Shown here piece by piece: positions 14,845-50,616 of a stretch of 64,000 bases of DNA (the stretch's first letter is position 1; every line of letters starts with the position of its first letter). A program made the translations under genes and the position numbers. Origin of the DNA: an uncultured bacterium. Lineage in GTDB: Bacteria > Patescibacteriota > Minisyncoccia > Phycocordibacterales > PALSA-1337. A model generated the notes under the pieces. It was not told the origin of the DNA. It did no database searches and saw nothing but the letters and a program-made list of their open reading frames with translations. Where the stretch lies: the NCBI GenBank assembly GCA_963851055.1, contig CAWKMY010000006.1, positions 14,663-78,662 of the forward strand, read 5' to 3'.

Positions 14845-14906
14845 CTTAGGCGTTTCTTTATCAGTTCTTAGGCGTTTTTTGATTTCTTTTTGAGCGTTTC
14901 TTTATC
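14845..14906 (+). repeat. 62-bp modular interspersed repeat, copy 1 (variant), directly upstream of ORF 14928
   Basis: cttaggcgtttctttatcagttcttaggcgttttttgatttctttttgagcgtttctttatc; shares ttaggcg, tttgagcg and tttctttatc modules with copies at 18572, 47861 (rc) and 50555 (rc). Confidence 0.75.
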
Positions 14907-14927
14907 TCGGTCTGATACAGTTTCTTA

Positions 14928-15296
14928 ATGGACAAAATCCATTATGAAAAACTACTTGAAAAGAGACGTCAATGGTACAAAACCGTAAAGAAAGTCTACT
15001 GTCCTTGTTTAGGAGTGGATGTATTTTTTAATTCTAAAGGCTTCAGACACATCTTATATGACGGCGAGGGTAAATTGCGTTCCTTGCAAGATCGCATCCG
15101 TAGATTGAACTTATTGCCTCTGGCCATTTCGATGATCGGAAACTCGACGAAAATCCATGAACATAGAACTCAATGGAATATGAACTCCGTTTCTTTCAGA
15201 AAATATCATTCGAATAGAGGAACTTGGATAACGGTCGTCATCAAGATAAATCCTTTGGGTAAAATGAATTTTGTGAGCGTCATCGACCGCAAATAG
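14928..15296 (+). CDS. Hypothetical protein
   Basis: 122 aa ORF starting 22 nt after repeat copy 1; weak terminator-like hairpin with T-run at 15303-15328. Confidence 0.4.
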   Translation: MDKIHYEKLLEKRRQWYKTVKKVYCPCLGVDVFFNSKGFRHILYDGEGKLRSLQDRIRRLNLLPLAISMIGNSTKIHEHRTQWNMNSVSFRKYHSNRGTWITVVIKINPLGKMNFVSVIDRK

Positions 15297-15434
15297 CAAA
15301 AAGACCGTCGTTAGACAGTCCTTTTGGCATACCCACTGACGGTTTGGAGGATATTATCCCGTGACCGAGCCAAGGCTTGCGCCTCATGGGTATGGGAATA
15401 TTATATTCCTCTCAATAAAACAAAGTCAAGAACC

Positions 15435-16073
15435 TTATGCGGCCTTCTTTACTTTGGCCGATTTATCAGCTTTTGGCACCCCACTTTCCTTGGCCGGCTT
15501 ATCAGCCTTCGGTACCTTATCACCCTTTGGTGCCTTGGCGGCCTTCTTTGCCTTAGCTGGTACAACTACTTTCGGTGTACCTACGATGCCTCCATAACCC
15601 GGATTCTTTACAATAACCTTATCAATGATGATAGTGACTGTACCACCAGCCTTCTCAATCTTTTCATTTGCAGAACCGGAAATGAAACATCCTGAAACTT
15701 TGATAGCTTTGGTGATCTCACCATCGCCGAGGATCTTGACCTCTGGAATGCGTCCAGACTGGCTGTATACAACTCCCTTTTCTACGAGTGTGGCTGGAGT
15801 AACCACATCACCCGCCTTGAAAACCTCTTCTATTTGAACGAGGTTGATCACTTTGCGGGCATCACTAACAGGCTTGTTCTGGCTGACGCCACGACCGCGC
15901 AATTTTGGAAGCTTCTTTATGATGTCACGCCATTCTGGGCGGCGCTTGTTACCGGCACGAGCGGACTGGCCTTTGCCCCCGCGACCGGAAGTCTTACCAC
16001 GCTTGCCGCCACGACCGACGGTCATGCGCTTCATATTCTTATGGACTCTTTTTAGTTGATTGGATTGCATGTT
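15435..16073 (-). CDS. rplO: 50S ribosomal protein L15 with K/A/P-rich C-terminal extension
   Basis: L15 core (RGGKRGKTSGRGGKGQ ... ) from internal Met MQSNQLK; C-terminal PKADKPAK... tail. The longer ORF to 16112 overlaps rpsE. Confidence 0.8.
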   Translation of the reverse strand, partial: NMQSNQLKRVHKNMKRMTVGRGGKRGKTSGRGGKGQSARAGNKRRPEWRDIIKKLPKLRGRGVSQNKPVSDARKVINLVQIEEVFKAGDVVTPATLVEKGVVYSQSGRIPEVKILGDGEITKAIKVSGCFISGSANEKIEKAGGTVTIIIDKVIVKNPGYGGIVGTPKVVVPAKAKKAAKAPKGDKVPKADKPAKESGVPKADKSAKVKKAA

Positions 16074-16851
16074 ATTTGTTTTCCTTAGGAGCTTTTCCTT
16101 GCATGGTGGCACGAGACATTCTGGAAAGCTTGTCGAGGGCTACGATAGCGGCGCGAGCGATATTGATCTTGTTCTTGGAACCAGACATTATCTTGGCTGC
16201 AATATCCTTGATACCGGCAAGCTCTATGACTACGCGAGCTGATGAACCGGCAACTATACCGCTACCGCGAGCTGGGAAAATCATAATGCGTGCGCTGCCG
16301 AATTTACCTTCTGTAGCATGCGGTATGACCATCTGAGCATTTAGAGGAATCTTTATGAGATGCTTCTTGGCTTCACGTGTAGCTTTTTCTATGGCGAGCG
16401 ATGTATCTATACCTTTGCCCAAACCAACACCGACACGGCCTTTCTTGTCTCCGGCCACAACAGCTACACTGAAATTCATGCGTCGGCCACCAGAGGTGAC
16501 GCGTGTGACGCGGCGAATATCTATCATTTTGGCATCGAATTCTGGTTTTATACGCTCTCCCCTCTCACCTCCACGGCCACCGGAACGTCCGCCTGAACGG
16601 CCTCCGCGAGAGTCTCCGCGAGCTCCAGGGGCACCAGAACGTCCTCCAGCACGAGCTGAATCGCGCATCTTCCTGCCAGGAGTAATCTTGTTCGGTGATA
16701 CTGGAGCTCCTACTGGAGCGACAGCATCAGCTATAGGCATGACTGGATCAGTAGCCTCAGAGACGACGGCCTCTTTTGCGATAGCATCCAAAGCCACCTT
16801 GTCATTCAAGGAAATTTCTTCGTTATTGTTCTGTATGTCTTGTTTAGGCAT
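16072..16851 (-). CDS. rpsE: 30S ribosomal protein S5 with about 100-aa N-terminal extension containing RGG/RSGG repeats
   Basis: C-terminal S5 domains (FSVAVVAGDKKGRVGVGLGKG ... IMIFPARGSGIVAG); N-terminal RGDSRGGRSGGRSGGRGGERGER. Confidence 0.85.
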   Translation of the reverse strand: MPKQDIQNNNEEISLNDKVALDAIAKEAVVSEATDPVMPIADAVAPVGAPVSPNKITPGRKMRDSARAGGRSGAPGARGDSRGGRSGGRSGGRGGERGERIKPEFDAKMIDIRRVTRVTSGGRRMNFSVAVVAGDKKGRVGVGLGKGIDTSLAIEKATREAKKHLIKIPLNAQMVIPHATEGKFGSARIMIFPARGSGIVAGSSARVVIELAGIKDIAAKIMSGSKNKINIARAAIVALDKLSRMSRATMQGKAPKENK

Positions 16852-16876
16852 GTGTTTATAAAAATTGCATTAAAAT

Positions 16877-17230
16877 TTAGAATTCTAGACCTCCTTCGCG
16901 GGCACCATCGGCTACTAACTTGATCTTGCCTGCATAGAGGTAACCACCCTTGTCGAAGACGACCTTCTTTATCTTTGCCGCTATGGCTTTCTTTGCAAGG
17001 CCCAAACCAACTTCTTTGGCCTTATCAGCTGGACTCTTGCCTTTTGCATCCTTGGAAGAAAATGCCGCCAAAGTATTACCTTTTGTATCATCGATGATCT
17101 GGGCATACATGTAACGATGTGACTTGAAGACAGAAAGGCGTGGGCGCTCGGCCGTGCCGCTTACTTTGGCGCGGACGCGAGCCGCCCTACGAGCAAATTT
17201 CATATTCTGATTTTTGATGATGGATTTCAT
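16877..17230 (-). CDS. rplR: 50S ribosomal protein L18
   Basis: 117 aa, L18 signature and operon position. Confidence 0.9.
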   Translation of the reverse strand: MKSIIKNQNMKFARRAARVRAKVSGTAERPRLSVFKSHRYMYAQIIDDTKGNTLAAFSSKDAKGKSPADKAKEVGLGLAKKAIAAKIKKVVFDKGGYLYAGKIKLVADGAREGGLEF

Positions 17231-17267
17231 GGTGTTGTTTGCTTGATCATTGCGTCATTGATCATTT

Positions 17268-17816
17268 CTACGCGGCTTTCTTTCCTTGCTTCCTGCGGAT
17301 GACTTCATCTGAATATCTGATGCCTTTACCGAGGTAAGGCTCCGGTTTCTTCATGGCACGAACGACGGCCGCGAACTGACCAACTTTCTCGGAATCTATG
17401 CCGCTTATAGTGACGTTATTCTTCTCTGTAGTCACTTTGAGGTCAGTCGGAACTGGTACGTTGATGAGATGTGAGAATCCTACGGCCAAAACGAGATCTT
17501 TACCCTTTATATCAGCCTTGTAACCGATACCTTCTACTATGAGTTTCTTTTCGTAGGCCTTATTGACGCCAGCTATCATATTGCGGATATGCGAAGCGTA
17601 AGTGCCGATCATGGCCTTGGACTGGAGAGTATTCCTGGTCGTAGCTAGAGCGATCTCTTTTGCGCCAGTCTCATTTGCAGTGATAGTGACTGAAACATCA
17701 TCACGGAAATTTTTAGTCAAAGTGCCGAGAGGACCCTTTACGGTCATGACGCCAGCAGCAAAGCTAGCCTCTGTACGGCTCGGAATAATTATTGGTTTCT
17801 TTGCAATGCGTGACAT
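17268..17816 (-). CDS. rplF: 50S ribosomal protein L6
   Basis: 182 aa, two L6 domains; operon position. Confidence 0.9.
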   Translation of the reverse strand: MSRIAKKPIIIPSRTEASFAAGVMTVKGPLGTLTKNFRDDVSVTITANETGAKEIALATTRNTLQSKAMIGTYASHIRNMIAGVNKAYEKKLIVEGIGYKADIKGKDLVLAVGFSHLINVPVPTDLKVTTEKNNVTISGIDSEKVGQFAAVVRAMKKPEPYLGKGIRYSDEVIRRKQGKKAA

Positions 17817-17854
17817 GGTATTTAAATAAGGAGTTAGAAGTTGGGAGTTAGAAG

Positions 17855-18241
17855 TTACCAGATTTTAAATAAAATTTCGCCGCCCAACTTGTGCTTCTTG
17901 GCTTCCATATCAGTCATGATGCCCTTGGAAGTAGAAAGAATGAGGTTTCCGAAGCCGCTACGGAATGAACGTATGTCGCTGGCCTTCTGATAAAGACGGC
18001 GTGAAGGCTTGGACAGGCGCTCAACACCATGGATGCGGGGCTCACCATCGAAATAGACTAGGCCGAGCTCTATCTCTCTTTTGGTCTTTGACTTCTCAAC
18101 AGTAGAGAGATAACCAGCCTTCTTCAGAGAATGAGCTACATTCTCAGCAAATTTGGATCCGAGGACAACGACTGAAGCCTTCTTGGCGTCTGAGCCATTC
18201 TTGATGCGGATTATGAGGTCTGATATTGGGTCGGTTACCAT
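17855..18241 (-). CDS. rpsH: 30S ribosomal protein S8
   Basis: S8 begins at MVTDPISDLIIRIKNG; upstream part of ORF is a read-through extension overlapping rpsN. Confidence 0.85.
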   Translation of the reverse strand: MVTDPISDLIIRIKNGSDAKKASVVVLGSKFAENVAHSLKKAGYLSTVEKSKTKREIELGLVYFDGEPRIHGVERLSKPSRRLYQKASDIRSFRSGFGNLILSTSKGIMTDMEAKKHKLGGEILFKIW

Positions 18242-18420
18242 GATGATTTCTTTATACCTGGAATAGCTCCTTCGTTGGCGAATTCGCGGAAACAGATACG
18301 GCACATGTCGAAGTCGCGCATATAGCCGTGCTTACGACCACAGCGGAAACAGCGTCGAACAACCCTAGACTTGAACTTGGGCTTCTTTTTCGAGCGGGCT
18401 ATGACTGCTTTTGTGGCCAT
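18235..18420 (-). CDS. rpsN: 30S ribosomal protein S14 type Z (zinc-binding, 61 aa)
   Basis: CFRCGRKHGYMRDFDMCRIC four-Cys motif, 61 aa. Confidence 0.85.
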   Translation of the reverse strand: MATKAVIARSKKKPKFKSRVVRRCFRCGRKHGYMRDFDMCRICFREFANEGAIPGIKKSSW

Positions 18421-18571
18421 GGTTATTTTTGCAAAACAAATGGGATTGGTCAGCTGTTCGGCGCTTTTAAGAGCGGACCCGATGTGCTTCCAATCATTTC
18501 CTCATAAAACTCTTGTTTTCTAAGGTAAGGATGATACTAGCAGATGAAGACTAGAGAGTCAATAACAAAAT

Positions 18572-18633
18572 CTTAGGCGAATTTTGAGCGAAAATTATGC
18601 GTTTTTTGATTTCTTTTTGAGCGTTTCTTTATC
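18572..18633 (+). repeat. 62-bp modular interspersed repeat, copy 2, 11 nt upstream of mazF-like start
   Basis: cttaggcgaattttgagcgaaaattatgcgttttttgatttctttttgagcgtttctttatc. Confidence 0.8.
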
Positions 18634-18644
18634 ACCTCTATGAT

Positions 18645-19085
18645 ATGTTGCTGTGTATGGACGAAATATACATCAAAGACTTCGATAAATGGAATGAATG
18701 CCAAAAGGCTCTTGATAAACAAGAATTCGAGGGATTTTGTCGTGAACGAGAAGTTTGGTGGTGCGCCTTGGGAGTGAATATTGGCTCGGAACAAGACGGT
18801 AAGAATGATTTATTTGAACGACCAGTACTCATTATCAAGAAGATCCGAAAAGATCTATTACGCATCATTCCACTTACAAGTAAAATAGAAAACCACGATG
18901 ACCGTATAACTGCGATCATTGCTGGAGAAAAATCCCAAATACTTCTCTCACAAGCTAAAACTATCAGCAGTAAGAGGTTATTAAGAAAAATAGGTTATGT
19001 ACGAATCCCATTATTCCAAGAGGTAATCATCCGTCTAGTCAAATCCATACTTGATATCCCTTACGAAAGCGAAACCCCGCTATAA
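18645..19085 (+). CDS. MazF/PemK/EndoA-family endoribonuclease toxin homologue (no obvious cognate antitoxin ORF)
   Basis: REVWWCALGVNIGSEQDGKNDLFERPVLIIK and SQILLSQAKTISSKRL closely parallel B. subtilis EndoA/MazF ([41 protein letters not shown]). Confidence 0.7.
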   Translation: MLLCMDEIYIKDFDKWNECQKALDKQEFEGFCREREVWWCALGVNIGSEQDGKNDLFERPVLIIKKIRKDLLRIIPLTSKIENHDDRITAIIAGEKSQILLSQAKTISSKRLLRKIGYVRIPLFQEVIIRLVKSILDIPYESETPL

Positions 19086-19577
19086 AAGCGGGGAATCTCG
19101 GAGCCCGAAGGCCAAGGTGATACAAGTATATAGGATATAATTTCTGTGTCAAGAAAGATGCTTAGGTGGCATTCACAGCAAAAATAATAACCTTCATTTC
19201 TTGAGTGTAATGAATGAAAGACAACACAAGAGGCCTCTATTAAAGGCCTCTTGAAGAATCTCCGCGTTTTTCGCAAAGCAAGACTGTTCCGGAGGGACCC
19301 CTATTTTTCTCCCTCAACGCCTTTTCATGCCGTATATAAATCAAGGCCGTAGACCTGGGGGATTTACTACATCAAAACTAGTCTTATGACTACATTTTAA
19401 CAAAAATAAAGGCGTTGTCAAACAAAAAAAATATTCATAAATATGCAGAAAACCCGTGCGATTCCATCGTACGGGTTTTGAATGTCAGCGGCTCATTCCG
19501 TGCCGGGTGGTTAGACCACCAAATTTTTAGGACAAAGGTCAAAGTGACAAAAGTCATCAGTGACTAAGTCCAGAGTG

Positions 19578-20387
19578 CTAACTTGCGGACACCGCGGCCG
19601 GGCTGCGGCCATTGAAGTCAACGTCGAGCCAGCGGTAGACCCAGACCCACCCATCGCCGCGCCAGTAGAGGAAACGGACACAGAGGCGGCCACCGGCGTC
19701 GCGGTATATGGTGCCCCAGAAGAAGACGGCTTTGCCTTTCCATTCCTCCGGAATCAGATGGAGATTCGCCATATAGAAGTCCCCCAATTGGGCACCATAG
19801 ACCGGAACTTTCTCCAGCTTCTGGCGAAGTTTGTTCCCCTGGATCCATTTGCCGTCCTTCTGTCCGTCGTCCAGATGAAGCGCAACTTTCTTGGAGTCGA
19901 ACTTCATGGTGCCACGCACCCGATTGGGAAGCTGTTTGGCATCCGGCAGGATCGTCCAACCTTTCGGCACAGACGGAGCCTTGTCGAAGTCAATCAGGTG
20001 TTCAATGGGTTTGATTTCGGAGCAGCCGCGGATATACGAGAGGATTCGGCCGAGCTTGTCGGTATCCCCCGCGATCGAAGCAAAGTCTGCCTCGCGGAAC
20101 CCCACCTTCTTGGCGTAATCCTCGATGGCCAACAAGGACATGAGGAACGGCTGGCCTTGAATGACTTCCGCCGTGATGGCCTGTTTCCACGGTAGGGCCT
20201 TACGGAGCGCCTCGAGATGTTCGGATTCGACTCCGAACGAGGCGAGCAACTCCAAGGTTGCGGTGATTTCAGAATACGGTGTTTTGACAAGATTCCCTTT
20301 CATAAAGGTCATCCTTTCTTTGTTTGGCTCCCTCTCGCATAGCGAAAGGTCGCTGGTTTTTGTTTGCTGGACTCTTCGCCACAGCAT
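19578..20387 (-). CDS. Hypothetical protein in a conspicuously GC-rich segment
   Basis: 269 aa ORF with protein-like composition; overlapping plus-strand ORF 19560..20195 judged antisense artefact of GC-rich DNA. Confidence 0.45.
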   Translation of the reverse strand: MLWRRVQQTKTSDLSLCEREPNKERMTFMKGNLVKTPYSEITATLELLASFGVESEHLEALRKALPWKQAITAEVIQGQPFLMSLLAIEDYAKKVGFREADFASIAGDTDKLGRILSYIRGCSEIKPIEHLIDFDKAPSVPKGWTILPDAKQLPNRVRGTMKFDSKKVALHLDDGQKDGKWIQGNKLRQKLEKVPVYGAQLGDFYMANLHLIPEEWKGKAVFFWGTIYRDAGGRLCVRFLYWRGDGWVWVYRWLDVDFNGRSPAAVSAS

Positions 20388-20448
20388 TCAAAGGCCTAAG
20401 ATTCAAGCCGCTAAATTAAGGGCTTTTTTTCTGCAATCTTCTAACTCC

Positions 20449-21012
20449 TTACTTCTTACTTCCTGCTTCTTCTCTTTTGAGTGGCAATCCCAGATATTCG
20501 AGGAAAGTGAGAGTGGTCTTCTTGTCGTTGGAAGTAGTAACGAGAGTGATACCCATACCGAAGACGTCTTTGAGGTCCTCATCCGAGGTCTCGGCGAAAA
20601 TACTGTGCTCTTTGATACCGATAGTGTAATTGCCCATGGCGTCGACGGCTGTGCGAGAAAGTCCGCGGAAGTCCTTGGTGCGAGGCAAAGCGATATTGAT
20701 GAGACGATCCATAAACTCTGTCATTCGAGGGCCGCGAAGAGTGACCTGGTAAGCGAGTGGGTCACCAAGGCGAGTCTTGAATGTGGCGATGGCTTTCTTG
20801 GCAACACGAAGAGCAGGCTTCTGACCGGTAATGCGGGCCATACGGTCAGCGATGAGCTCGATCTTCTTCTTGTCTTTGACCGAGCCAAAACCGGTTCCGA
20901 TAACAACTTTGGAGAGCTTCGGAGCTTGCATAGGATTCTTTAGATGGAGCTTTTCCTTAAGAGCGCTGAATGATTCCTTATTTAGCTGTTGAGTTGTCTT
21001 TACGTGTGTCAT
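20449..21012 (-). CDS. rplE: 50S ribosomal protein L5
   Basis: 187 aa, L5 signature. Confidence 0.9.
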   Translation of the reverse strand: MTHVKTTQQLNKESFSALKEKLHLKNPMQAPKLSKVVIGTGFGSVKDKKKIELIADRMARITGQKPALRVAKKAIATFKTRLGDPLAYQVTLRGPRMTEFMDRLINIALPRTKDFRGLSRTAVDAMGNYTIGIKEHSIFAETSDEDLKDVFGMGITLVTTSNDKKTTLTFLEYLGLPLKREEAGSKK

Positions 21013-21035
21013 GGTAGTTTATTGAAAATCCGGAA

Positions 21036-21254
21036 TTAGCTGACTTTAACGACTTTGCTTGCGTGCATGGGCATTGCCCTCTCGACAACTTGACCTTTTT
21101 GGTCTTGCCTCTTTGAACGTTCGTGCTTCTTTACTGTATTCATGCCTTCAATGACGATCTTGTTTACAGCCGGAAAAGCGTGAGCAACCTTGCCGGTCTT
21201 GCCCTTGTCATCGCCTGAGAGTATTTTGACTGTGTCGCCTTTTTTGATATGCAT
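21036..21254 (-). CDS. rplX: 50S ribosomal protein L24
   Basis: KOW motif MHIKKGDTVKILSGDDKGKTGKV. Confidence 0.85.
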   Translation of the reverse strand: MHIKKGDTVKILSGDDKGKTGKVAHAFPAVNKIVIEGMNTVKKHERSKRQDQKGQVVERAMPMHASKVVKVS

Positions 21255-21285
21255 GGTAGTTAAATGAAATGGGAAATTGTATCGG

Positions 21286-21657
21286 TTAGACGATTTCGGC
21301 GGCCTTAGATGCTATGGTTTTGAAACCAGCTTCGGCTATCTCGCGAGGAATAGGCCCGAATATACGTCCGGCAATAGGCTCTTTCTTGTCCTTCTCTATG
21401 ATGACTACTGCATTCTCGTCGAAACGGATGTATGAACCATCTTTTCTGCGAGTGGCTTTGATCTGGCGGACGACGACAGCATGGAGGACGTCCTTCTTCT
21501 TCACAGCCTTACGAGGTTCAGCTTTCTGAACAGACAGAACCACGATCTCACCGAGCTCCGCATAGCGCTTCTTTGACGAACCGAGCACCTTGAATATGCG
21601 TCCGATCTTTGCGCCGGAATTGTCTGCTATATTCACTATTGAGCGGGGTTGGATCAT
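21286..21657 (-). CDS. rplN: 50S ribosomal protein L14
   Basis: MIQPRSIVNIADNSGAK ... classic L14. Confidence 0.9.
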   Translation of the reverse strand: MIQPRSIVNIADNSGAKIGRIFKVLGSSKKRYAELGEIVVLSVQKAEPRKAVKKKDVLHAVVVRQIKATRRKDGSYIRFDENAVVIIEKDKKEPIAGRIFGPIPREIAEAGFKTIASKAAEIV

Positions 21658-21666
21658 ATCGGTATA

Positions 21667-21954
21667 TTATACGATGACCTTAAATGCTTTATTCTTGGAG
21701 ATGGGCTTGCAAGCCTCGATGGTGGCTGTATCCCCCACTTTCTTGGTATTTCCGACATCATGAGCCATGAGCTTGGTCTTACGGGTCTGGAACTTGTGAT
21801 ACTTGGCATGCTTGATGAAACGCTCTATGACTACGACTGTCGTATCTTTCATGCTGGCCGAAGAAACAACGCCTGTATAAGTTTGGCGGTTCACCTTCTT
21901 TGTTGAATCTTTGGAAGAAGCTTCGTCTTTAGTTGTTATCTTGGTTGCGGTCAT
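21667..21954 (-). CDS. rpsQ: 30S ribosomal protein S17
   Basis: 95 aa, S17 OB-fold sequence. Confidence 0.85.
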   Translation of the reverse strand: MTATKITTKDEASSKDSTKKVNRQTYTGVVSSASMKDTTVVVIERFIKHAKYHKFQTRKTKLMAHDVGNTKKVGDTATIEACKPISKNKAFKVIV

Positions 21955-21997
21955 TGGGTTGTTGATACTACTTGAATTTGATTGAAATGTCTATAGT

Positions 21998-22207
21998 CTA
22001 GGCCCTCTTTCCATTATCAATAACAGACATGGCTGTCATGATGCGAGCAATGTCCTTACGGATGGTCCTGCCCTCTTTTACATTCTTGGTCTTGGCACCG
22101 GAAGCACCAAACCTGAATACACGCAAAGCTTCGCGCTTGTCGGAGACCAGTTTGGCTAGGTCTGCTTGAGTCTTATTGGTTATATCCTTCATTTTGGTGG
22201 ATTTCAT
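21998..22207 (-). CDS. rpmC: 50S ribosomal protein L29
   Basis: L29-like 69 aa from internal Met MKSTKMKDITNKTQADLAKLVSDKREALRVFRF; upstream 61 codons of the ORF are non-L29 read-through. Confidence 0.7.
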   Translation of the reverse strand: MKSTKMKDITNKTQADLAKLVSDKREALRVFRFGASGAKTKNVKEGRTIRKDIARIMTAMSVIDNGKRA

Positions 22208-22400
22208 GGGGGACTGAATATAAAAAGCTCCACAGAGCCGTGGGAATAGACTACCAAAGCCGCTTGACAAAGTCAATGAAACGGCTATGATTGATTCCAA
22301 CGAGCAGGCAGGGACAAATTCCTGTAGGAAAAGCCATAAAAAGCTACTTGCCGAGCTGGCCTCCCCCGAAAGGGGGCGGTTTCGTCTCAACCTATGTTAG

Positions 22401-22428
22401 TTGTCCTAATATTCCTTCGTAGTATACT
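22401..22428 (+). promoter_or_regulatory. Sigma70-like promoter (TTGTCC-N16-TATACT) for the antisense cargo genes
   Basis: ttgtcc at 22401-22406, tatact at 22423-22428, ATG at 22431. Confidence 0.45.
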
Positions 22429-22430
22429 TA

Positions 22431-22943
22431 ATGTTAAATATGCTTAAAACAAGGTCACAACAACTGAACGAGCGTTTATACGAGAATGCAATCTTGTATT
22501 TTATCAAGTATTGCAACAATCAATACCTCGGCAAGACTAAGCTGAATAAGCTTTTGTACTACTTGGATTTCATCTCTTTCAGGGATACGACGAAGACCGT
22601 GAGCGGTGATTCGTATGTACATCAGGAATATGGTCCAGTACCCACTCACATGGATCAAGTATTAACCGAACTCAAAACAAAAGGAATTATTGAAACCGAG
22701 GCTATGCCATACAAAGACGGAGAAATGATCCGTTTTCAGATAAAGAAGACTGACTCCTTGAACGAGAATCTCTTCTCTAAGGATCAAAAAATCCTTTTGA
22801 AAGAAATCTGCGATGAATTCGGTAGTTGGTCAACTGACAAGATCGTGACGCAAACACACCTTGAAGCTCCATGGTTCTTCTCCAAGCCATTTGAAATAGT
22901 CGACTACAAATACGCTGAGGATATAGACTTTTTCCGAAAGTAA
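22431..22943 (+). CDS. Panacea-domain (DUF4065, SocA-like) putative antitoxin
   Basis: KLNKLLYYLDFISFRDTTKTVSGDSYVHQEYGPVP matches the DUF4065/Panacea core (KLxKLLYY...GxPxx...EYGPV). Confidence 0.55.
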   Translation: MLNMLKTRSQQLNERLYENAILYFIKYCNNQYLGKTKLNKLLYYLDFISFRDTTKTVSGDSYVHQEYGPVPTHMDQVLTELKTKGIIETEAMPYKDGEMIRFQIKKTDSLNENLFSKDQKILLKEICDEFGSWSTDKIVTQTHLEAPWFFSKPFEIVDYKYAEDIDFFRK

Positions 22944-22957
22944 TCTCTACTAACGCG

Positions 22958-23347
22958 ATGATCTGGATATATGTCGAACGCGAACAGTATGTCCGGATGT
23001 GCGAGAGGCTAAGGATTTCCACTGAATTGCGTGGAGCAATCAAAAGTTGGGCGCAGACGGTATCGAATAAAAGTGAAGCCCCTCGTTTGAAGCTAGTGTA
23101 TCGCTCACCGAATAATCGCTATGAAGCATGGAATGCTGGAATACCTAACCCAGAGAGCAATCGCGGCAAAAGAGGCGGATATCGCATTGTCTATTTCCTT
23201 GATCTTTTCGAAGGATCAATAAACTTGGATTTCATCGAGGAACGGAAGAACCTCGGATTTGGCAATGAACACCCCAGAGATAAAGAGAGATACAATGATT
23301 ATGTACGCGTGCTGAAAGGATATATCTTGAGATTATGCGCGGAGTAG
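22958..23347 (+). CDS. RelE/HigB/Gp49-like putative toxin
   Basis: NRGKRGGYRIVYFLD resembles the G(K/R)xGGYR(V/I)(I/V)Y signature of RelE/ParE-superfamily Gp49/HigB toxins. The gene starts 15 nt downstream of the Panacea gene. Confidence 0.45.
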   Translation: MIWIYVEREQYVRMCERLRISTELRGAIKSWAQTVSNKSEAPRLKLVYRSPNNRYEAWNAGIPNPESNRGKRGGYRIVYFLDLFEGSINLDFIEERKNLGFGNEHPRDKERYNDYVRVLKGYILRLCAE

Positions 23348-23371
23348 GGAAAAAGCTGTTATACTTCCGAT

Positions 23372-24139: not shown

Positions 24140-24140
24140 G

Positions 24141-24566
24141 TTAACCCCTCGCCACTATCTTTGTCTTCATCGGAAGTTTGGTACCAGCCTTGCGAAGGGC
24201 TTCATGAGCTACAGCCGGTTCTACACCGTCTATCTCGAACATGACGCGACCTGGCTTGACCACGGCTACGAATCCGACAGGTTCTCCCTTGCCCTTTCCC
24301 ATTTTCACTTCGGCAGGCTTCTGGGTGAAAGGATGATCAGGGAAAATGCGGATCCAAACTTTACCGGTCTTTCCTGCATTGTGCATGGCGGCCTTGCGTG
24401 CTGACTCGATCTGGTTGGAAGTGACGCGGCCATACTTCATGGCTTTCAAACCAAAAGAACCAAAAGAAACTTCGAGACCACGAGTCTCTGTCTTCATCGA
24501 TTCCTTGGCAGCGTTCTTGCGCTTTGTGAACCACTTGCGATGCTTTACTTTCTTTGGGAATAACAT
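24141..24566 (-). CDS. rplP: 50S ribosomal protein L16
   Basis: [13 protein letters not shown] ... classic L16. Its stop codon lies 1 nt from the convergent ANT(6)-like stop. Confidence 0.9.
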
Positions 24567-24615
24567 TGTAGTTAATTATTCAATGATCAATTTTCAATGA
24601 TCATTGTGTTATTGA

Positions 24616-25287: not shown

Positions 25288-25288
25288 G

Positions 25289-25618: not shown

Positions 25619-25638
25619 GTTAGTTAGGAGTTAGGAGA

Positions 25639-25989: not shown

Positions 25990-26063
25990 AAAAAAGCTCG
26001 TAGCGAGCGTAAGAGGCATGGTAGCATAGCCAGTTTAGGCCGTCAAATTGGCGTGAGACAGGT

Positions 26064-26411: not shown

Positions 26412-26418
26412 ATTAATA

Positions 26419-30585: not shown

Positions 30586-30596
30586 GGTAGTTAAGG

Positions 30597-40656: not shown

Positions 40657-42802
40657 TTACTTCCTCTTCTCCTTTATACCCTCTGCAACGTTAGCCGGAA
40701 CGACTTCATAGTGATCGAATTCCATCTGAGCAGAACCTTGGCCGGAAGTCATGGAACGAAGAGCCGTGGTATAGCCGAACATCTCTGACAATGGAACCTT
40801 GGCGATGATAGAGATGACTTGGCCCTTTGGATTGGAGCCCTCGATGGTACCGCGCTTGGAAGCAATGGAACCATTGACGTCACCCATGTACTTCTCCGGA
40901 CAGACGACTTCGAGCTTCATGATAGGTTCGAGAATGACAGGCTTGGCGCGCTTGGCTGCATCTTGGAAAGCCTGGGAAGCGGCTATCTTGTAAGCGATCT
41001 CTGATGAGTCAACGTCGTGGTAAGAACCGAAAGTGAGCTCGCAGGAAATGTTAACAAGTTTGAAACCGGCGACGATACCGCGATCGAGTGCCTCACGAAC
41101 ACCTTTCTCGACGGCTGGAATAAATTCATTCGGAATGACGCCGCCTTTGATGGAGTTGATGAATTCAAAATCATCATAGCGGTGAACTGTCTTGGGTATC
41201 TTCTCCCCTTCCGGCCATGGTTCCATAGGTTTCGAGAGTCAGACGGACGTGACCGTATTGACCCTTGCCTCCGGTCTGCTTGATATATTTGTGTTCAGCT
41301 TCAGCGGTGCCGAGGATGGTCTCACGATATGCTACCTGTGGCTCACCGACATTGGCTTCAACGCCAAATTCGCGCTTCATACGATCCACCATGATCTCGA
41401 GGTGAAGTTCTCCCATGCCTGAAATAATAGTCTCGCCTGTTTCCTGGTTGCTGGAGATACGGAATGTTGGGTCTTCATTGCCGAGCTTGCGCAGAGCCAA
41501 GCCCATTTTCTCCTGATCAGCCTTGGTCTTCGGCTCGATGCGTAGAGACACAACCGGTTCCATGAATTTGATAACTTCGAGGACTATCGGGTGTTCCTCA
41601 TCGCAGAAAGTATTGGAAGTGAGGGCGTCTTTCAGTCCTACGGCGGCAGCGATCTCTCCGGCAAAGACTTTCTTGACCTCTTCACGCTTGTCGGCTTGGA
41701 GGCGGACGATACGACCGAGGCGTTCCTTCTTGCCAGTGGTGGAATTGTAAATATATGAACCAGCTTCTATGGTTCCGGAATAGACACGGAAGAATGTCAG
41801 AGCTCCGACGAATGGATCATTCTGAAGTTTGAATGCCAAGGCGGAAAAAGGTTCTTTGTCATCTGCGTGGCGGAGTATCTCTTCGCCTGTATTCGGGTCA
41901 ATACCCTTTATTGGAGGCATATCTAGAGGCGAAGGCAGGTAGTCGACGACGGCATCGAGAACGAGTTGAACGCCTATATTCTTCAAGGCGGAACCAGTGA
42001 AGACTGGGAACATCTTGTTGTCTATGACGGCACGGCGGACGATTTTCTTGAGCTCATCAACCGAAGGAGTTTTACCATCGAGATAAGAGGCCATGGCCAC
42101 ATCATCATGCTCGACGATCTTTTCTATGAGCTCGGCATGATATTTCTTTGCATCGGCGGCGAGTTCATCAGGAATCTCTTTTTCAACTATTTTATTTCCC
42201 ATTTCTCCCTCGAAATAGTATGCCTTCATCTTTAGAAGATCGACTACCCCAATGTGATTGCCCTCTGTGCCTATAGGGAGCTGGAAACGAACGGCCTTCG
42301 GACTCAACCTTTCGAGAATTGATTTGAATGAAAATTCGAAAGAAGCTCCCATGCGGTCCATTTTATTGATGAAACAAAGACGTGGCACATTGCCTTCGTC
42401 GGCATAGCGCCAGTTGGTCTCTGACTGTGGTTCAACGCCGGCAACGCCGTCGAAAACCACAACTGCTCCGTCGAGTACGCGTAGAGACCTTTTCACTTCT
42501 ACAGTGAAGTCGATGTGTCCAGGAGTGTCGATGATGTTGAAGCGAACCATCTTCGACTTATCGGTCGGAGGCATGTATGACGGATTCCAGAAACAAGTGA
42601 TAGCGGCAGCCGTGATGGTGATACCGCGCTCGCGCTCCTGTTCCATCCAGTCTGTGACAGTGTCACCTTCGTGCACTTCACCGATCTTGTGCGTCATTCC
42701 TGTATAGAAAAGAATACGCTCTGATGTAGTCGTCTTGCCCGCATCGATGTGGGCAATGACTCCGAAGTTACGTACTTGAGAGAGTGGGTAGTCGCGGTTC
42801 AT
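40657..42802 (-). CDS. fusA: Elongation factor G, split into two ORFs by an apparent +1 frameshift at about 41224-41236
   Basis: N-terminal ORF 41174-42802 (AHIDAGKTTTSERILFYTG...GQYGHVRLTLET) and C-terminal ORF 40657-41226 (MEPWPEGEK...). The frames switch inside aacctatggaaccatgg, a near-tandem aaccatgg duplicate with one extra t. Confidence 0.85.
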
Positions 42803-43995: not shown

Positions 43996-44032
43996 GATAG
44001 TTAAATGAAAATGGAAAAAGCAAAATGGAAAA

Positions 44033-44455
44033 TTAAGCAACCTTAGCGGCCTTTGGCTTCTTGTTTCCGTATTGGCTGCGACCTTTGCGACGCTTCTCTA
44101 CTCCGGCGCAGTCCAGGACTCCGCGGACGATGGAATAGCGCAAACCTACGTCCTTGACGCGACCTCCACGAAGGAGGACGACGGCGTGTTCCTGTAGATT
44201 ATGACCTTCACCCGGGACATATGCTGTGACTTCGACGCCGTTAGAAAGGCGTACGCGAGCAATCTTGCGGATAGCGGAGTTAGGCTTCTTTGGAGTCTTT
44301 GTCGTGACTTTCACGCATACACCACGCTTGAAAGGCGCAGGGAAAAAGCTCGGACGATTCTCGATCGAGTTGAAGGTGCGGGTGAGAGCGATAGACTTTG
44401 ACTTCCTCTTGAAAGTCTTGCGGCTTCTCTTTGTGAGCTGATTAATTGTTGGCAT
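44033..44455 (-). CDS. rpsL: 30S ribosomal protein S12
   Basis: [13 protein letters not shown] ... [10 protein letters not shown] classic S12. Confidence 0.9.
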
Positions 44456-44503
44456 AGTTTGTTAGTAATTCGTAAACAGTAAACTGTAAACGGAAAGTGT
44501 TGT

Positions 44504-44529
44504 TCTCTGTTTACGGTCTACTGATTACC
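44504..44529 (-). promoter_or_regulatory. Conserved upstream element (25-nt core) of the rpsL-operon promoter region, shared with ssrA
   Basis: ttctctgtttacggtctactgattac vs tttctgtttacggtttactgattac at 871-895, with further flanking similarity (taaacgg, tgttct, ccgtttact). Confidence 0.5.
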
Positions 44530-44739
44530 GTTTACTGCGATTTTTCCGTTTGAATTTTTTCATCATTTTCAGCTCGAGCGAGCTTGAATGATTACTCATA
44601 CGGAACTAGTAATTAAATTGTAGCCCCCTTGGGCAGTGGGGAGACTTTAGCATAGAAGAGATTCTCTGGCAAATCTGAATTGAATCCTCCAGCGCATTCA
44701 AAATTTGCCGATAACTGCGGATAGTTTCCAAACAGCTAT

Positions 44740-46466: not shown

Positions 46467-46934
46467 TTATGGTGCCGTCCCTCCAGAGATATCATACATT
46501 TTCTCATAGGTTCTCGGATCTATGATAAATGCGGAAACGACCTGATTCTCTGAACCAGGCGTTTTTGTTATCTCAAGAACTACTCCATAATTTCTACTAA
46601 TTTTCCGTGTTAGGATAAAACTATTATCTCGTTTTAGAAAATTGTTGACTATCTTTTCGGGCATATTTAGAACCACTGGAATTATACTTATAACTTCATC
46701 GGCCTTATTTCCTCTACTGTCGATGATATGCTTGAGAGCTCTTCTGGAAATATATACCCCACGGGATTTAGACCCGATAACTTGTGCCGTGCAGTATGAG
46801 ATGAATGCCACACTAAATATTCGGAGTGGATCGGGAATGGCCTCACCAACACTGATGTTCTTAAGCTCCTCAATTATTTCATCCGGTATACTCATGTATT
46901 TATGTTCATTGAGAAATACCGATGTCAATTCCAT
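46467..46934 (-). CDS. Hypothetical protein, paralogue A of a two-member family with RR(A/T)LKH motif
   Basis: Aligns with ORF 48733..49176: YISRRALKHIIDSRG...IIPVVLNMPEKIV...VVLEI vs FFTRRTLKHLAEKG...IIPNILEYPDVIF...IIVIEF. Confidence 0.4.
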   Translation of the reverse strand: MELTSVFLNEHKYMSIPDEIIEELKNISVGEAIPDPLRIFSVAFISYCTAQVIGSKSRGVYISRRALKHIIDSRGNKADEVISIIPVVLNMPEKIVNNFLKRDNSFILTRKISRNYGVVLEITKTPGSENQVVSAFIIDPRTYEKMYDISGGTAP

Positions 46935-47838
46935 CTGACTCTATTTTCACAGTCCCTTTCTCTTTTACATTGAAACGTTTGTCGTCGAGTATGAAATAAA
47001 GTGGATCAACTTTTTTGGCCACAGACTTTTTGGTCCCGCTAGTTATAGATTGCGAATAAACCAAATATTCAGGACGCATTTTATTCATTAGCTCAGCTGA
47101 TAAAGAGCCGGCCAATGCGCTATTCGGCATAACCAAAACATTTGCGCGCAATGAATTTGAACCAAATTGATCAGATGAAGATGCCGCCGAAACCAAAAAC
47201 TTTTGCACTTTGGTCGTTGCATTTCCGAGTAACATAACTGAAGTCTGGCCGTATGAAATTTTCATTATAATCTCCGGCGCGCTTGCATTTGAATACGCAA
47301 ATAAAGATGGCGGTGCTGGAAAAAGAACACCCGCTTTTACCGGCTCTCCCCCGATTCTCTGTCCAAAATCGAGCACATCCCCAGCCGAAACCTCCTCCAT
47401 AGGCACCTTTAATTGCTTAACCGTATCGAGAAAAGTCTGATATATCTGACCTGTCGAACTAGCTAGACCCAAAGCCTGTAATGAAACGCCCGGCACAACG
47501 ACTTTATCGACAGAGTATCGTTCCAAAACATCGATAAGCCCCGAGACATCCTTGTCGTCAGCGTCAGTGGCAATAACTACGTCGATCCGACGCGAATAGA
47601 AAGGCAGAATGTCCGTCAATTCACGGATGACTTCGGAATTCGCTCCGCCATTTATCAAAATCCTTTTATCATCGGGTGTGCGGACGAAGACTGATGAACC
47701 GCTTTTCAGGTTGAAGACGTATACCTCAAGGATGGGCAGACGATGTTCTTCTCGCCACGCATAACCGGCAATGCCGCAGGCTAGAGTCGCGGCTGTGGCA
47801 CCGATCAAGAACGGTTTGGACATGATTTTGACTGTCAT
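46906..47838 (-). CDS. Membrane-anchored MBL-fold protein resembling the ComEC C-terminal metallo-beta-lactamase domain
   Basis: Start at MTVKIMSK; the listed ORF start at 47877 lies inside the repeat. TM anchor, then LEVYVFNLKSGSSVFVRTPDDKRILINGG typical of the ComEC MBL domain. Confidence 0.5.
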   Translation of the reverse strand: MTVKIMSKPFLIGATAATLACGIAGYAWREEHRLPILEVYVFNLKSGSSVFVRTPDDKRILINGGANSEVIRELTDILPFYSRRIDVVIATDADDKDVSGLIDVLERYSVDKVVVPGVSLQALGLASSTGQIYQTFLDTVKQLKVPMEEVSAGDVLDFGQRIGGEPVKAGVLFPAPPSLFAYSNASAPEIIMKISYGQTSVMLLGNATTKVQKFLVSAASSSDQFGSNSLRANVLVMPNSALAGSLSAELMNKMRPEYLVYSQSITSGTKKSVAKKVDPLYFILDDKRFNVKEKGTVKIESDGIDIGISQ

Positions 47839-47860
47839 GCACCCCAGTCTACAGACCCGA

Positions 47861-47922
47861 GATAAAGAAACGCTCAAAAAGAAATCAAAAAACGCCTAAT
47901 TTTCGCTCAAAATTCGCCTAAG
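47861..47922 (-). repeat. 62-bp modular interspersed repeat, copy 3, 22 nt upstream of the MBL gene start
   Basis: rc reads cttaggcgaattttgagcgaaaattaggcgttttttgatttctttttgagcgtttctttatc; shares the extra tcgg(g)tctg tail with copy 1. Confidence 0.8.
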
Positions 47923-48582: not shown

Positions 48583-48732
48583 AGACTACTACTCATTGAC
48601 ATCACCCCTTTATTTGTCCTACACTTATGCCAGTGAAATACCTTGAGAGTTTCGAGATTCTCTAAGAGCGGAAAATTCGGGTCGGCCGCCAGCGTTCGCT
48701 TTACCGCGAATATGCAGTATGGAGGGATCGCC

Positions 48733-49176
48733 TCACGAAAGTGAGCCGCCCGTCCTCCAGAGAATCTCAAAGTTCTTGAGGTATTTTTCGTCCGTGACAA
48801 AAGATGTGACCAGAATCACGCCTCTCTCAAGAAATTCAATTACGATTATATGCGGCTCTCTTTTCTTGCCCTGATTGAAAAATTTTGCAGAAAGTAACCG
48901 AGTCTTCTTTCCCCGGAAAATAACATCTGGATATTCGAGGATATTTGGAATAATTCCGAGCAATCTTTTACCCTCTACTCCCTTTTCGGCAAGATGTTTT
49001 AGTGTACGTCGAGTAAAAAATGCCTGTAACTTTCCTCTAGAAAAAATCTGCATAATTACAGGGTGTACAGAAAAACCAGTCTGGATTAATTCATCAGGCC
49101 TATCAATCAAAATCCCTTTCGGAATTTTTTGGAATTCGTAAAAAATTGACCGTAAAGGTGTGGTGTGCTTATTCAT
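48733..49176 (-). CDS. Hypothetical protein, paralogue B (RRTLKH motif)
   Basis: See paralogue A; overlaps stop of comEC N-terminal gene by 4 nt. Confidence 0.4.
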   Translation of the reverse strand: MNKHTTPLRSIFYEFQKIPKGILIDRPDELIQTGFSVHPVIMQIFSRGKLQAFFTRRTLKHLAEKGVEGKRLLGIIPNILEYPDVIFRGKKTRLLSAKFFNQGKKREPHIIVIEFLERGVILVTSFVTDEKYLKNFEILWRTGGSLS

Positions 49177-50540
49177 ATCATTTTTTCAAGATTCTTTGGC
49201 CGACTTCTCCTCCTCTTCACCAGCATAAACCCGACGAGAAATACCCCATAAAACCCCACCACCCACCAGCCGGAAAATTGCGGCAGGTAGACGGCGGCGA
49301 ATGGCAATCTGGCGAAATGCTCGACTATAAAGAGCTCGTAGGCCAGAAGTAGATGCGCTCCCCAGCCGAATATGTGCGAGACCGGCGACGAAATGAAACC
49401 TGAGGCACCCGTTAGGAAGACGGCCAACATCGTCAGCGGAATAAAAGGCAAAACCAAAATATTCACTACTACGCCGACTATAGAAAGCTGGCCCATCATA
49501 TATAGGATGAATGGCGAGACGAATATCTGGGTCGAGGTCGTGGCAGCAACTATGCCGCGCATGCCGAATGTCTCCGGTATGAAGGTTAGGCGCTTTTCGA
49601 TAGGGCTGGCTAGAAGGATCAACCCGAGTGTGGCCAAAAATGAAAGTTGAAATGATGGGTCATGCAGGAGAATCATCGGATTTTCTATGAGCATCAGACA
49701 TGCGGCGAAAGACAGGGCACGGACGACATTGTAGTCACGACGGGTAAGGTCGGCAGACAGGGCAACTCCCGCCATGAAGCACGAGCGCACAACCGTCGCT
49801 CCTCCGCCGACCAAAATGCCGAAAAGAGCGATACCTATTCCGCCGACCACTATTCCCCAAACTCGAGGAAGCCTCGATAGCAATTTACGTAATGCATAGG
49901 CTACGATGGTTATATTGAAACCGGACAAAACGACTATATGTATAAGACCGACGATACGAAAATCATTGAGTAAATCTTTACCCAGAGCCGCTTTCTCCCC
50001 TACCACCAGCCCTGCCGCCAATGCAGAGTGGGGCTCGCCTAGAGAGCTATTCAGGTTATTGACAAAGCCGCGTTTGAGCTTGAGCAAGAGCGAAGTTATC
50101 GACCATCCATTATCAGGATTGGTCAAGACGACCGCCGAGCTTTTCATTTCATAGAAAATATCGTCCTTGGCTAGATAATCTCTGTAATCGAAAGACCTGC
50201 CCGTATCGCTTTGAAAATTAAATGGTGCAGACAATTTTCCCGTAAATGAAACCGTGTCTCCATAATGGAATCGGGGATACAATTTAGTTTTCATTTGGAT
50301 TAGAAGGCCGTCCGGGCATTTATTTTCGCCAGCTGACAATCGACTGGTCGAAACAACCAGAACCTGACCCGTATTAGTGAATGACGGATCTTCGGTGATC
50401 GTCCCAACTCCTTCTATCTGTTGTTTGAGACATGGACCAATGTCTGGCGACACTATGAAAAATGATTGGCCGACGCGAAAAATCGCGGCCGTTATGAATA
50501 TGCTCCAGAAAATGAAAACCCCCCTGTTCATGGAGAGCAT
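49173..50540 (-). CDS. comEC: ComEC/Rec2-like competence membrane channel, N-terminal (DUF4131 + competence) portion only
   Basis: 455 aa polytopic membrane protein with typical ComEC channel region; lacks C-terminal MBL domain, which is encoded separately at 46906..47838. Confidence 0.65.
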   Translation of the reverse strand: MLSMNRGVFIFWSIFITAAIFRVGQSFFIVSPDIGPCLKQQIEGVGTITEDPSFTNTGQVLVVSTSRLSAGENKCPDGLLIQMKTKLYPRFHYGDTVSFTGKLSAPFNFQSDTGRSFDYRDYLAKDDIFYEMKSSAVVLTNPDNGWSITSLLLKLKRGFVNNLNSSLGEPHSALAAGLVVGEKAALGKDLLNDFRIVGLIHIVVLSGFNITIVAYALRKLLSRLPRVWGIVVGGIGIALFGILVGGGATVVRSCFMAGVALSADLTRRDYNVVRALSFAACLMLIENPMILLHDPSFQLSFLATLGLILLASPIEKRLTFIPETFGMRGIVAATTSTQIFVSPFILYMMGQLSIVGVVVNILVLPFIPLTMLAVFLTGASGFISSPVSHIFGWGAHLLLAYELFIVEHFARLPFAAVYLPQFSGWWVVGFYGVFLVGFMLVKRRRSRPKNLEKMI

Positions 50541-50554
50541 TTTACTGGGACAGC

Positions 50555-50616
50555 GATAAAGAAACGCTCAAAAAGTAATCAAAAAACGCCTAATTTTCGC
50601 TCAAAATTCGCCTAAG
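50555..50616 (-). repeat. 62-bp modular interspersed repeat, copy 4, 14 nt upstream of comEC start
   Basis: rc reads cttaggcgaattttgagcgaaaattaggcgttttttgattactttttgagcgtttctttatc. Confidence 0.8.

Follow-up and report, generated by a model that had tools for sequence, protein, structure and literature searches.

A probable direct-repeat promoter array before split comEC and RNase-toxin-like genes in Patescibacteria: a candidate DNA-uptake regulon

Proteins of the OmpR/PhoB family dimerise head-to-tail on direct repeats that have a period of 10-11 bp. In pho-box promoters the box replaces the -35 box, about 10 bp upstream of the -10 box, and OmpR occupies three tandem 20-bp sites at ompF and ompC. 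Here we describe a 62-bp element that occurs four times in a 64-kb stretch of DNA from an uncultured member of the Patescibacteria (contig CAWKMY010000006.1, positions 14,663 to 78,662; 64,000 nucleotides, hereafter the window, numbered from its first letter). The element stands before the two parts of a split ComEC gene and before two toxin-like genes, and it is probably the upstream regulatory half of a shared promoter, an array of activator sites marking a regulon.

The promoters to which the arrays can best be compared are those of the pho box/PhoB, PhoP and PmrA type, which are subject to class II activation. Common to both are direct-repeat half-sites with a period of 11 bp, a proximal site about 10 bp upstream of the -10 box that replaces the -35 box, a fixed orientation, and a two-component locus that itself carries the sites, as in autoregulation. 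The arrays differ from the pho-box type in their half-site words, which are CTTnAnC-like (TTCTTGAGCG / TTTCTTTATC), in the number of half-sites (4-8 vs 2-4), in having DNA-uptake and toxin genes as targets with no pst or pho genes seen, and in the predicted leaderless mRNAs. The OmpR sites F1-F2-F3 and C1-C2-C3 of ompF and ompC likewise form a run of three adjoining sites, each about 20 bp long and composed of two half-sites of 10-11 bp; they span about -40 to -100 and are filled cooperatively by head-to-tail dimers, whereas in our case the period is 22 rather than 20 bp, the array reaches -23 and many promoters carry a near-identical sequence. The competence elements (the streptococcal com-box/cin-box of ComX, the ComE repeats, the B. 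subtilis ComK boxes and CRP-S/Sxy) resemble the array in that one upstream element stands before comEC, comF, comM, pilin and recA genes. Streptococcal ComE is geometrically the closest of them: its direct repeats of 9 bp are separated by about 21 bp and precede extended -10 promoters. The sequence of the array is, however, unrelated to these elements, the candidate regulator is of the OmpR type and not a LytTR protein, ComK, CRP or a sigma factor, and many of the targets are toxin genes. The proposed mechanism is of a known kind (pho-box/OmpR-like), the putative regulon promoter is new, and the element belongs to no motif family so far described.

The element and its register with the gene start

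All four copies of the element lie exactly where the original prediction had placed them, on the same strands:

14845..14906, plus strand: array copy 1, three 22-nt units, the distal unit being a TTTCTTTATC variant
18572..18633, plus strand: array copy 2
47861..47922, minus strand: array copy 3, with orthologous arrays at the related loci L016 and L067
50555..50616, minus strand: array copy 4, with orthologous arrays at L016, L039 and L041

A 39-nt core of the element has four matches in the window at no more than one mismatch, against an expectation of 0.00 from 100 shuffles; the four copies are not attributable to chance. Copies 2-4 are identical at 60-61 of the 62 positions, and copy 1 shares 51-52 of the 62 with them, its differences being confined to the distal third. 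No fifth copy was found in the window at up to five mismatches to the 20-nt proximal unit.

The sub-modules recognised at first reading are correct and can be sharpened into three tandem 22-nt units, that is, six direct-repeat half-sites in 11-nt phase. The half-sites of copy 3 read, in order, TTCTTAGGCGA ATTTTGAGCGA / AAATTAGGCGT TTTTTGATTTC / TTTTTGAGCGT TTCTTTATC. Autocorrelation of the window copies yields z values of 3.1-3.9 at lag 11 and 4.3-5.7 at lag 22, the corresponding values for the consensus of the related population being 5.9 and 6.8, and 48 unique copies align in the unit register. The array is T-rich, with tracts in helical phase, and its best-conserved positions are the G/C-containing words (GAGCG, ATC, GGCG), not the T/A tracts. 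The four window copies contain direct repeats only, with no inverted repeat or palindrome inside the element. Their flanks are unrelated to each other and show no target-site duplication. As RNA the four copies fold into less structure than their shuffles do (z of +0.5 to +1.6). A search of Rfam at the element in the window and at nine related loci gave no match; the only Rfam matches of the window are tmRNA and DUF3800-II RNA, and one related locus has a tRNA.

A TAnnnT hexamer starts 9-10 nt past the last base of each window copy:

14913..14921, plus strand: extended -10 box TGaTACAGT of copy 1, ATG 6 nt further
18641..18649, plus strand: extended -10 box TGaTATGTT of copy 2, ATG 7 nt further
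47846..47851, minus strand: -10 box TAGACT of copy 3, ATG 7 nt further
50539..50544, minus strand: -10 box TAAAAT of copy 4, ATG 7 nt further

The true start codons are the ATGs at 14928, 18657, 47838 and 50531, so that the distances from copies 1-4, first given as 11-22 nt, have to be corrected to 21, 23, 22 and 23 nt. Nearer ATGs at 18645 and 50540 fall within the -10 box and are unused in orthologues, where they are not open, and a public ComEC gene call (P0121, 100% identical) starts at the ATG at 50531. The tcgg(g)tctg tail reported with the element is real: it consists of the spacer and the TG that belongs to an extended -10 box, and many of the related copies have it too. No Shine-Dalgarno sequence is present between the -10 box and the start codon at the four window copies, and because the -10 box lies only 6-7 nt before the start codon the mRNAs are predicted to be leaderless. 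Many other genes of the window have TAnnnT 6-7 nt before the ATG and are without a Shine-Dalgarno sequence; judged by this spacing, leaderless design is general in this genome.

The array occupies about -23 to -86, at the usual position of the -35 box. A simple sigma-70 scan called a -35/-10 pair for copy 2 only (TTGAGC-16-TATGAT) and found no -35 box at 16-18 nt for copies 1, 3 and 4. TTGAGC was rejected as a general -35 box because its spacing to the -10 box is 20-21 nt. The promoters of the ComEC N-part (ComEC-N) and of the part carrying the metallo-beta-lactamase-like domain (MBL part) lack the -35 box as well as the TG extension, and for that reason they should depend on a bound protein. 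The element had been proposed to be a promoter or a 5' leader; it probably functions as a promoter array, and the promoter half of that proposal stands with the restriction that the element is not a whole promoter, since the -10 box lies outside it, 9-10 nt downstream.

Related copies and the genes that they precede

The proximal 20-mer was scanned against one genome per species. Six intergenic matches were found in OY969557.1, a chromosome of 876 kb from an uncultured bacterium, which shares synteny with the window and is 70-84% identical to it in nucleotide sequence (70-77% in coding DNA), and further intergenic ones in metagenome-assembled genomes (MAGs) of Paceibacterota and Taylorbacteria; the other matches were single ones in unrelated organisms, mostly within coding DNA. 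A scan of metagenomes with a slightly degenerate pattern gave 77 loci, about 45 of which were assigned to the array family. Some 60 further copies are thus available in related Patescibacteria, all of them intergenic and co-oriented with the downstream gene, and the claim that the element is always oriented to a gene start at a fixed distance extends to them. In the family copies one, two or (once) three more 22-nt units precede the 20-mer, e.g. aATCTTCATCGTTTCTTTATCag ATCTTCATCGTTTCTTGAGAAC. Window and related copies taken together, a TAnnnT hexamer starts 9-10 nt after the proximal unit in 58/64, TG stands at -15/-14 in 37/64, and ATG or GTG follows 4-9 nt past the -10 box, mostly 6-7, in 29/64. 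As a control, the hexamer was found at that position in only 4 of 50 unrelated 20-mer matches. The conservation of the distal units and of the -10 box is independent evidence because neither was in the search pattern.

The com promoters were also approached without the motif, through ComEC-N homologues picked by protein similarity alone (62-85% identical), which added four further lineages. All four share the synteny RecJ - RNase H - ComEC_N - (superoxide dismutase) - MBL part - L28 ... S12 - S7. In-phase 11-nt half-sites, from three to eight of them, are present at all eight ComEC-N and MBL-part promoters, followed in every case by 6-10 nt and a -10-like hexamer (TAnnnT in seven, CATAAT in one), with the start codon, wherever one could be assigned, 6-8 nt past the hexamer. 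The words of the half-sites differ from lineage to lineage (TTCTTGAAC, TCTTTATC, CCTTGAGC and TTTGAGC/CTTTAGC). Scanning about 250 kb for at least four in-phase YTTNA words, a pattern outside which the window's own TTAGGCG dialect falls, returned eight arrays, and none in shuffles; all eight lie at com promoters, in regulator-kinase spacers or, in one case, at L107:18158-18219, where another copy of the regulon array precedes a non-coding stretch that is conserved. Orthologous com promoters thus keep their arrays from lineage to lineage, and those of the ComEC-N and MBL-part genes are kept both in OY969557.1 and in metagenome populations.

The proteins encoded downstream were classified by clustering and family searches. 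The ComEC N-part follows the array in the window, L016, L039 and L041, the MBL part in the window, L016 and L067, ComM/YifB in L012 and L096 (519 bits to TIGR00368), prepilin-type (type IV pilin) proteins in L004, L060, L066, L090 and L093, RecA in L045 and a ComF-family phosphoribosyltransferase in L088. One element thus stands before several DNA-uptake and recombination genes, as in a competence regulon, and these genes are the coherent core of the predicted target set. The other downstream products are MazF/PemK-like proteins (n=8), LPD3-like proteins (n=7), Gp49/HigB-like toxins (n=2, one with an XRE antitoxin), small coiled-coil proteins, large secreted proteins, an IS200-like transposase and a histidine kinase. 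The array is absent from the ribosomal-protein and other strong promoters of the window. A regulon comprising DNA-uptake and recombination genes, RNase-toxin-like genes (MazF, Gp49/HigB, LPD3, PBECR), some secreted proteins and a partner kinase is, as predicted from these sites, conserved in a broad group of Patescibacteria. A Pho regulon was not adopted as the interpretation, no pst or pho genes being present among about 60 targets.

Some further features of the related loci deserve mention. At L107:18220-18500, L052:4036-4315 and L061 (minus strand, about 2700-2973) the array appears to drive a conserved non-coding stretch of about 270 nt in which a T-arm-like hairpin (GGGGTTCGATTCCCC) and the conserved word CTTGAC are seen, together with a strong terminator. 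This stretch, which follows the L107b, L052 and L061 copies, matches no Rfam family and has no homologue in the window; it may be a small RNA of the regulon. In one metagenome population (L065, L066, L039, L070, L083, L096) a perfect palindrome, GCGCAGGTCTATCCTGCGC-N6-GCGCAGGATAGACCTGCGC, often stands in place of the distal unit and resembles a repetitive extragenic palindromic (REP) element. The predicted targets of the array include the gene of an IS200/RAYT-like Y1 transposase (L050:1368).

Candidate binding protein and competing explanations

The 11-bp direct-repeat geometry pointed to a protein of the OmpR/PhoB type before any such gene was seen. The L046 copy lies directly after a gene for an OmpR-family response regulator and before a histidine kinase gene, and the same order of regulator and array is found in seven lineages (L046, L068/L111, L107, L108, L110, L112 and L113), the kinase gene being next after the array wherever it is present. 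Among these, L068/L111 carry units of the window type, L107 belongs to OY969557.1 and has four units, L108 is from Taylorbacteria, and L110 is from Paceibacterota, the MAG being that of L002. Between lineages the regulator shows 56-93% identity, with a nearly invariant recognition helix, and among proteins of solved structure it is nearest to DrrD, M. tuberculosis PhoP, MtrA and BasR/PmrA. Within each genome the com promoters and the regulator-kinase promoter share one repeat dialect. We regard this conserved OmpR/PhoB-family regulator as the candidate array-binding protein, an assignment to which we give an even chance of being correct. A receiver-domain protein encoded upstream of the L082 and L103 copies was rejected as the binder, as it has two receiver domains and no DNA-binding domain.

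The arrays of the regulator loci are followed, after the -10 box, by a conserved palindrome, GTTATGwGTCGACATAAC. It is seen as GTTATG(T/A/C)GTCGACATAAC in seven lineages, including those whose array has drifted, where the histidine-kinase transcript is predicted to begin, and may be a second operator or an RNA hairpin:

L046:997-1016, L107:10884-10901, L108:10813-10830 and L110:10809-10826, also in L111, L112 and L113: kinase-promoter palindrome

In the mechanism that we propose, in which promoter activity, transcription start, activation and the identity of the binding protein are all predictions from DNA sequence, regulator dimers, all on the same face of the helix, would fill the three 22-bp sites head-to-tail. 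The dimer at the proximal site (about -23 to -42) would contact RNA polymerase in place of a -35 box, and transcription would start at or beside the A of the ATG, giving a leaderless mRNA.

Several observations weigh against this proposal or narrow it. The regulator is linked to the array by adjacency and by family-typical site geometry, which make it a putative binder. The kinase gene has been deleted in the window-type lineage (L111:10827-10948, and L068), with about 27 codons left, so that the regulator is an orphan there, and the arrays persist. The half-sites vary strongly between lineages (TTAGGCG, TTCATCG, TTGAAC, TTTATC), whereas the recognition helix hardly changes. Copy 2 can also be read as a plain sigma-70 promoter (TTGAGC-16-TATGAT), and a few related copies (L052, L061, L107b, L027b) precede no clear open reading frame. 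That the proximal 20-mer does not vary among the collected copies is in part a product of the search, for which it served as the pattern. Finally, about half of the array-controlled genes, toxin-like or of unknown kind, are without a known link to DNA uptake, and therefore the name "competence regulon" may be too narrow.

The same array and the same protein could serve repression instead, a filament at -23 to -86 silencing constitutive extended -10 promoters until a signal arrives. Such promoters would be able to work without a -35 box, and the TGn extension is present in the 37 of 64 copies mentioned above; many of the targets are toxins, which are usually kept under tight repression, and most toxin promoters have the extended -10 box; that the arrays outlived the kinase also fits an unphosphorylated regulator acting as a repressor. 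However, the ComEC-N and MBL-part promoters, lacking both TG and -35 box, are expected to be weak unaided, direct repeats that abut the -35 position in one orientation are, as is well established, the classic activator geometry of OmpR and PhoB, and the operators of repressors usually overlap the -10 box or +1. We therefore lean towards activation and hold repression to be improbable.

Far less support can be found for a protein-independent upstream element, in which phased T/A tracts would bend the DNA or bind the alpha subunit of RNA polymerase in the manner of an UP element, and a strong constitutive promoter of this kind would have been copied around the genome. The T-richness of the array, its helically phased tracts and the near-identity of copies within one genome are what such an element would predict. 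Against this, the words containing G and C are better conserved than the tracts, the element extends to -86 or -110, past the reach of an UP element, it is limited to a coherent gene set and absent from the strong promoters of the window, and it is conserved beside the regulator gene in seven lineages. We consider this explanation very unlikely.

The original prediction favoured a mobile promoter or the junction scar of a recombination system, and the evidence for copying is real. Near-identical promoter segments before unrelated genes of one genome have reportedly been described as promoter propagation in prokaryotes (Matus-Garcia et al. 2012). Copies 2-4, which are 97-98% identical, and the copy at L111 are together 96-99% identical over 62-72 nt, spacer included, whereas agreement with the orthologous promoters of the relative, those of ComEC-N and the MBL part, is limited to 26-28 of 44 distal positions. 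The L111 copy is a fifth copy of the 62-mer, 98.6% identical to copy 3, and appears to derive from the same genome as the window or a very close one. The copy-1 variant is 90.5% identical over 74 nt to the L009 array, which in the relative stands before an unrelated Gp49-type toxin gene at another site of the ribosomal operon; this array-toxin-antitoxin cassette lies between rplD and rplC in the relative and is absent from the window. Near-identity within a genome, set against divergent orthologous promoters, therefore indicates that promoters were copied or homogenised within genomes, and points to copying or gene conversion between promoters.

Transposition is nevertheless not the main pattern, which is that of a conserved regulon. 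A mobile promoter, an element like a miniature inverted-repeat transposable element (MITE) or a cassette-junction scar is contradicted by the lack of terminal inverted repeats, target duplications and palindromes, by the lack of a transposase or integrase gene beside the window copies among the genes tested, by the fixed orientation and distance to the -10 box, and by arrays with lineage-specific sequence at orthologous com promoters of distant lineages; a MazF-like cassette is moreover found at the same ribosomal-operon site in another lineage, and the com arrays are of ancient origin. The same absence of inverted repeats and the same conservation at orthologous promoters speak against the recombination scar and against a REP element. 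Compared with putative mobile promoters, the arrays form a conserved regulon with orthologous sites across lineages, on which homogenisation is an overlay. Plasmid iterons are also tandem direct repeats with a 22-bp period that bind protein and act as operators, as predicted here, but the arrays are dispersed on the chromosome, stand in fixed register with the -10 box and the gene start, and have no origin context; integron attC sites, unlike the arrays, are imperfect inverted repeats at the 3' end of cassettes, whereas here direct repeats only lie 5' of genes. The mobile or scar explanation seems to us slightly less likely still than the UP-like one. We see in the element primarily the signature of a regulon and secondarily a module that has been copied. 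A larger mobile module, suggested by an apparent homology of about 35 nt upstream of copy 2 and of the L009 copy, was rejected, as the shared part is the organism's consensus strong promoter (TTGACT-N14-TGcTAsTAT), found at 4-5 of the 49 copies surveyed.

The last explanation, a riboregulator in a transcribed 5' leader or else a site recognised by an alternative sigma factor, for which one might cite the constant position of the element 5' of genes and the genes for sigma factors of the extracytoplasmic function (ECF) type in related loci, can practically be dismissed, given that a housekeeping-type -10 box lies downstream of the element, that the mRNAs are predicted to be leaderless, that the RNA is less structured than shuffles and without an Rfam match, and that 4-8 repeats extending past -100 are contacted by no sigma factor.

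Surroundings of the window copies and biological meaning

The gene labels of the original prediction (MazF/PemK-like, ComEC N-part and ComEC beta-lactamase-like domain for the 310-aa protein) were all upheld. The genes, with the copies predicted to drive them, and the signals next to the four copies are the following:

14792..14821, plus strand: G+C-rich hairpin with a T-run just upstream of copy 1, terminator of the preceding 102-aa gene
14928..15296, plus strand: gene for a 122-aa protein, driven by copy 1, with weak LPD3 similarity below the Pfam cut-off
18534..18562, minus strand: divergent canonical promoter TTGACT-17-TAGTAT (with TG) toward rpsN/rpsH, 9 nt from the distal end of copy 2
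18657..19085, plus strand: MazF/PemK-like 142-aa gene driven by copy 2, antisense in the ribosomal-protein operon between rpsN/rpsH and rplE
46467..46934, minus strand: PBECR3 nuclease-like gene, 155 aa, overlapping the MBL-part gene (32.7 bits, cut-off 30)
46906..47838, minus strand: 310-aa membrane-anchored homologue of the ComEC beta-lactamase-like C-terminal domain, driven by copy 3
48733..49176, minus strand: PBECR2-like nuclease gene, 147 aa, overlapping the ComEC N-part gene (weak, E 4.9e-4, below cut-off)
49173..50531, minus strand: ComEC N-part (DUF4131 and Competence channel domain, 452 aa), driven by copy 4
50620..50638, minus strand: hairpin resembling a terminator, behind the RNase H gene and 3 nt before copy 4

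The hairpin at 14792..14821 was read directly from the sequence and is absent from the list of a simple scan. Seven homologues of the 122-aa LPD3-like protein carry the same array elsewhere, and at L058 a cassette occupies the same ribosomal-operon site (rpsN/rplE) as the MazF-like gene of the window. Copy 3 is located in a divergent spacer beside a superoxide dismutase gene. The 310-aa protein aligns to solved ComEC (PDB 30bt_A, residues 535-746, E 1.8e-7; also 9ic4_A). The PBECR3-like and PBECR2-like genes are probably in the same operons as the MBL-part and ComEC N-part genes, respectively. A PBECR3-ComEC fusion of 633 aa (P0240) is present among public homologues, and a functional link between PBECR nucleases and the DNA channel is suggested.

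Copies 1 and 2 are part of short plus-strand gene insertions within the minus-strand ribosomal-protein supercluster. This S10-spc-type run (rpsJ/rplC to secY; window 12933-32350, minus strand) is broken at least four times by foreign, mostly plus-strand genes:

14430-15296: insertion with the 102-aa gene and the LPD3-like gene
18657-20387: insertion with the MazF-like gene and a 269-aa unknown
22431-24139: insertion with a SocA/Panacea antitoxin gene, a 129-aa gene and a nucleotidyltransferase gene
28264-29082: insertion with a histidine-kinase-like gene

Canonical outward promoters at 15400-15429, 18534-18562 and 19125-19152 (all minus strand) may restart the ribosomal operon, reading antisense through the toxin genes. 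A DUF3800-II RNA (53.5 bits) at 22297-22361 on the plus strand lies directly upstream of the SocA/Panacea-domain gene 22431-22943, not of a DUF3800 gene. The fusA gene for EF-G (window 40657-42802, minus strand) is split within domain IV into the overlapping open reading frames 41174-42802 and 40657-41226 by a frameshift, which is either real or a long-read assembly error. The tmRNA at 461-823 (minus strand) is of the standard one-piece kind (106 bits) with an unusual tag peptide, AKTVSPYFTERDFAFALV. Other short word arrays, at 4734-4778, 30049-30093, 873-905, 44466-44538, 44005-44033 and 57797-57825, lie just upstream of translation-related genes that have no Shine-Dalgarno sequence; two ribosomal-protein genes, for example, are preceded by ATTCGTAT repeats, and GTTTAC/TTACTG repeats occur before rpsL and beside the tmRNA gene. 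Such arrays may have a regulatory role as well, or may enhance translation.

Patescibacteria account for much of the diversity of bacteria. Their genomes are tiny, most of them cannot synthesise nucleotides, and the uptake of DNA through ComEC is regarded as central to the way they live. In Saccharibacteria, natural transformation has been shown to depend on ComEC (PMC10633639). Full-text literature searches returned nothing on the regulation of com genes or on any regulon in Patescibacteria. We tentatively suggest, at somewhat less than even confidence, that Paceibacteria-type lineages, including Taylorbacteria, may control DNA uptake (split ComEC, ComM, ComF, RecA and pilins) through one OmpR-type two-component system, that the same signal may co-induce RNase toxins (MazF-, RelE/Gp49-, PBECR- and LPD3-like), and that the lineage of the window may have lost the kinase and homogenised its promoters. 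Toxin-antitoxin-type RNases would in this way be tied to the DNA-uptake programme. The finding offers a testable cis element, a predicted gene set, a candidate sensor-regulator pair and a predicted promoter architecture, leaderless and with an activator array in place of the -35 box, which might become an expression tool in these organisms. It provides a first testable regulatory circuit for DNA uptake in this radiation and, if true, would for the first time define a regulon, and a competence switch, in the candidate phyla radiation.

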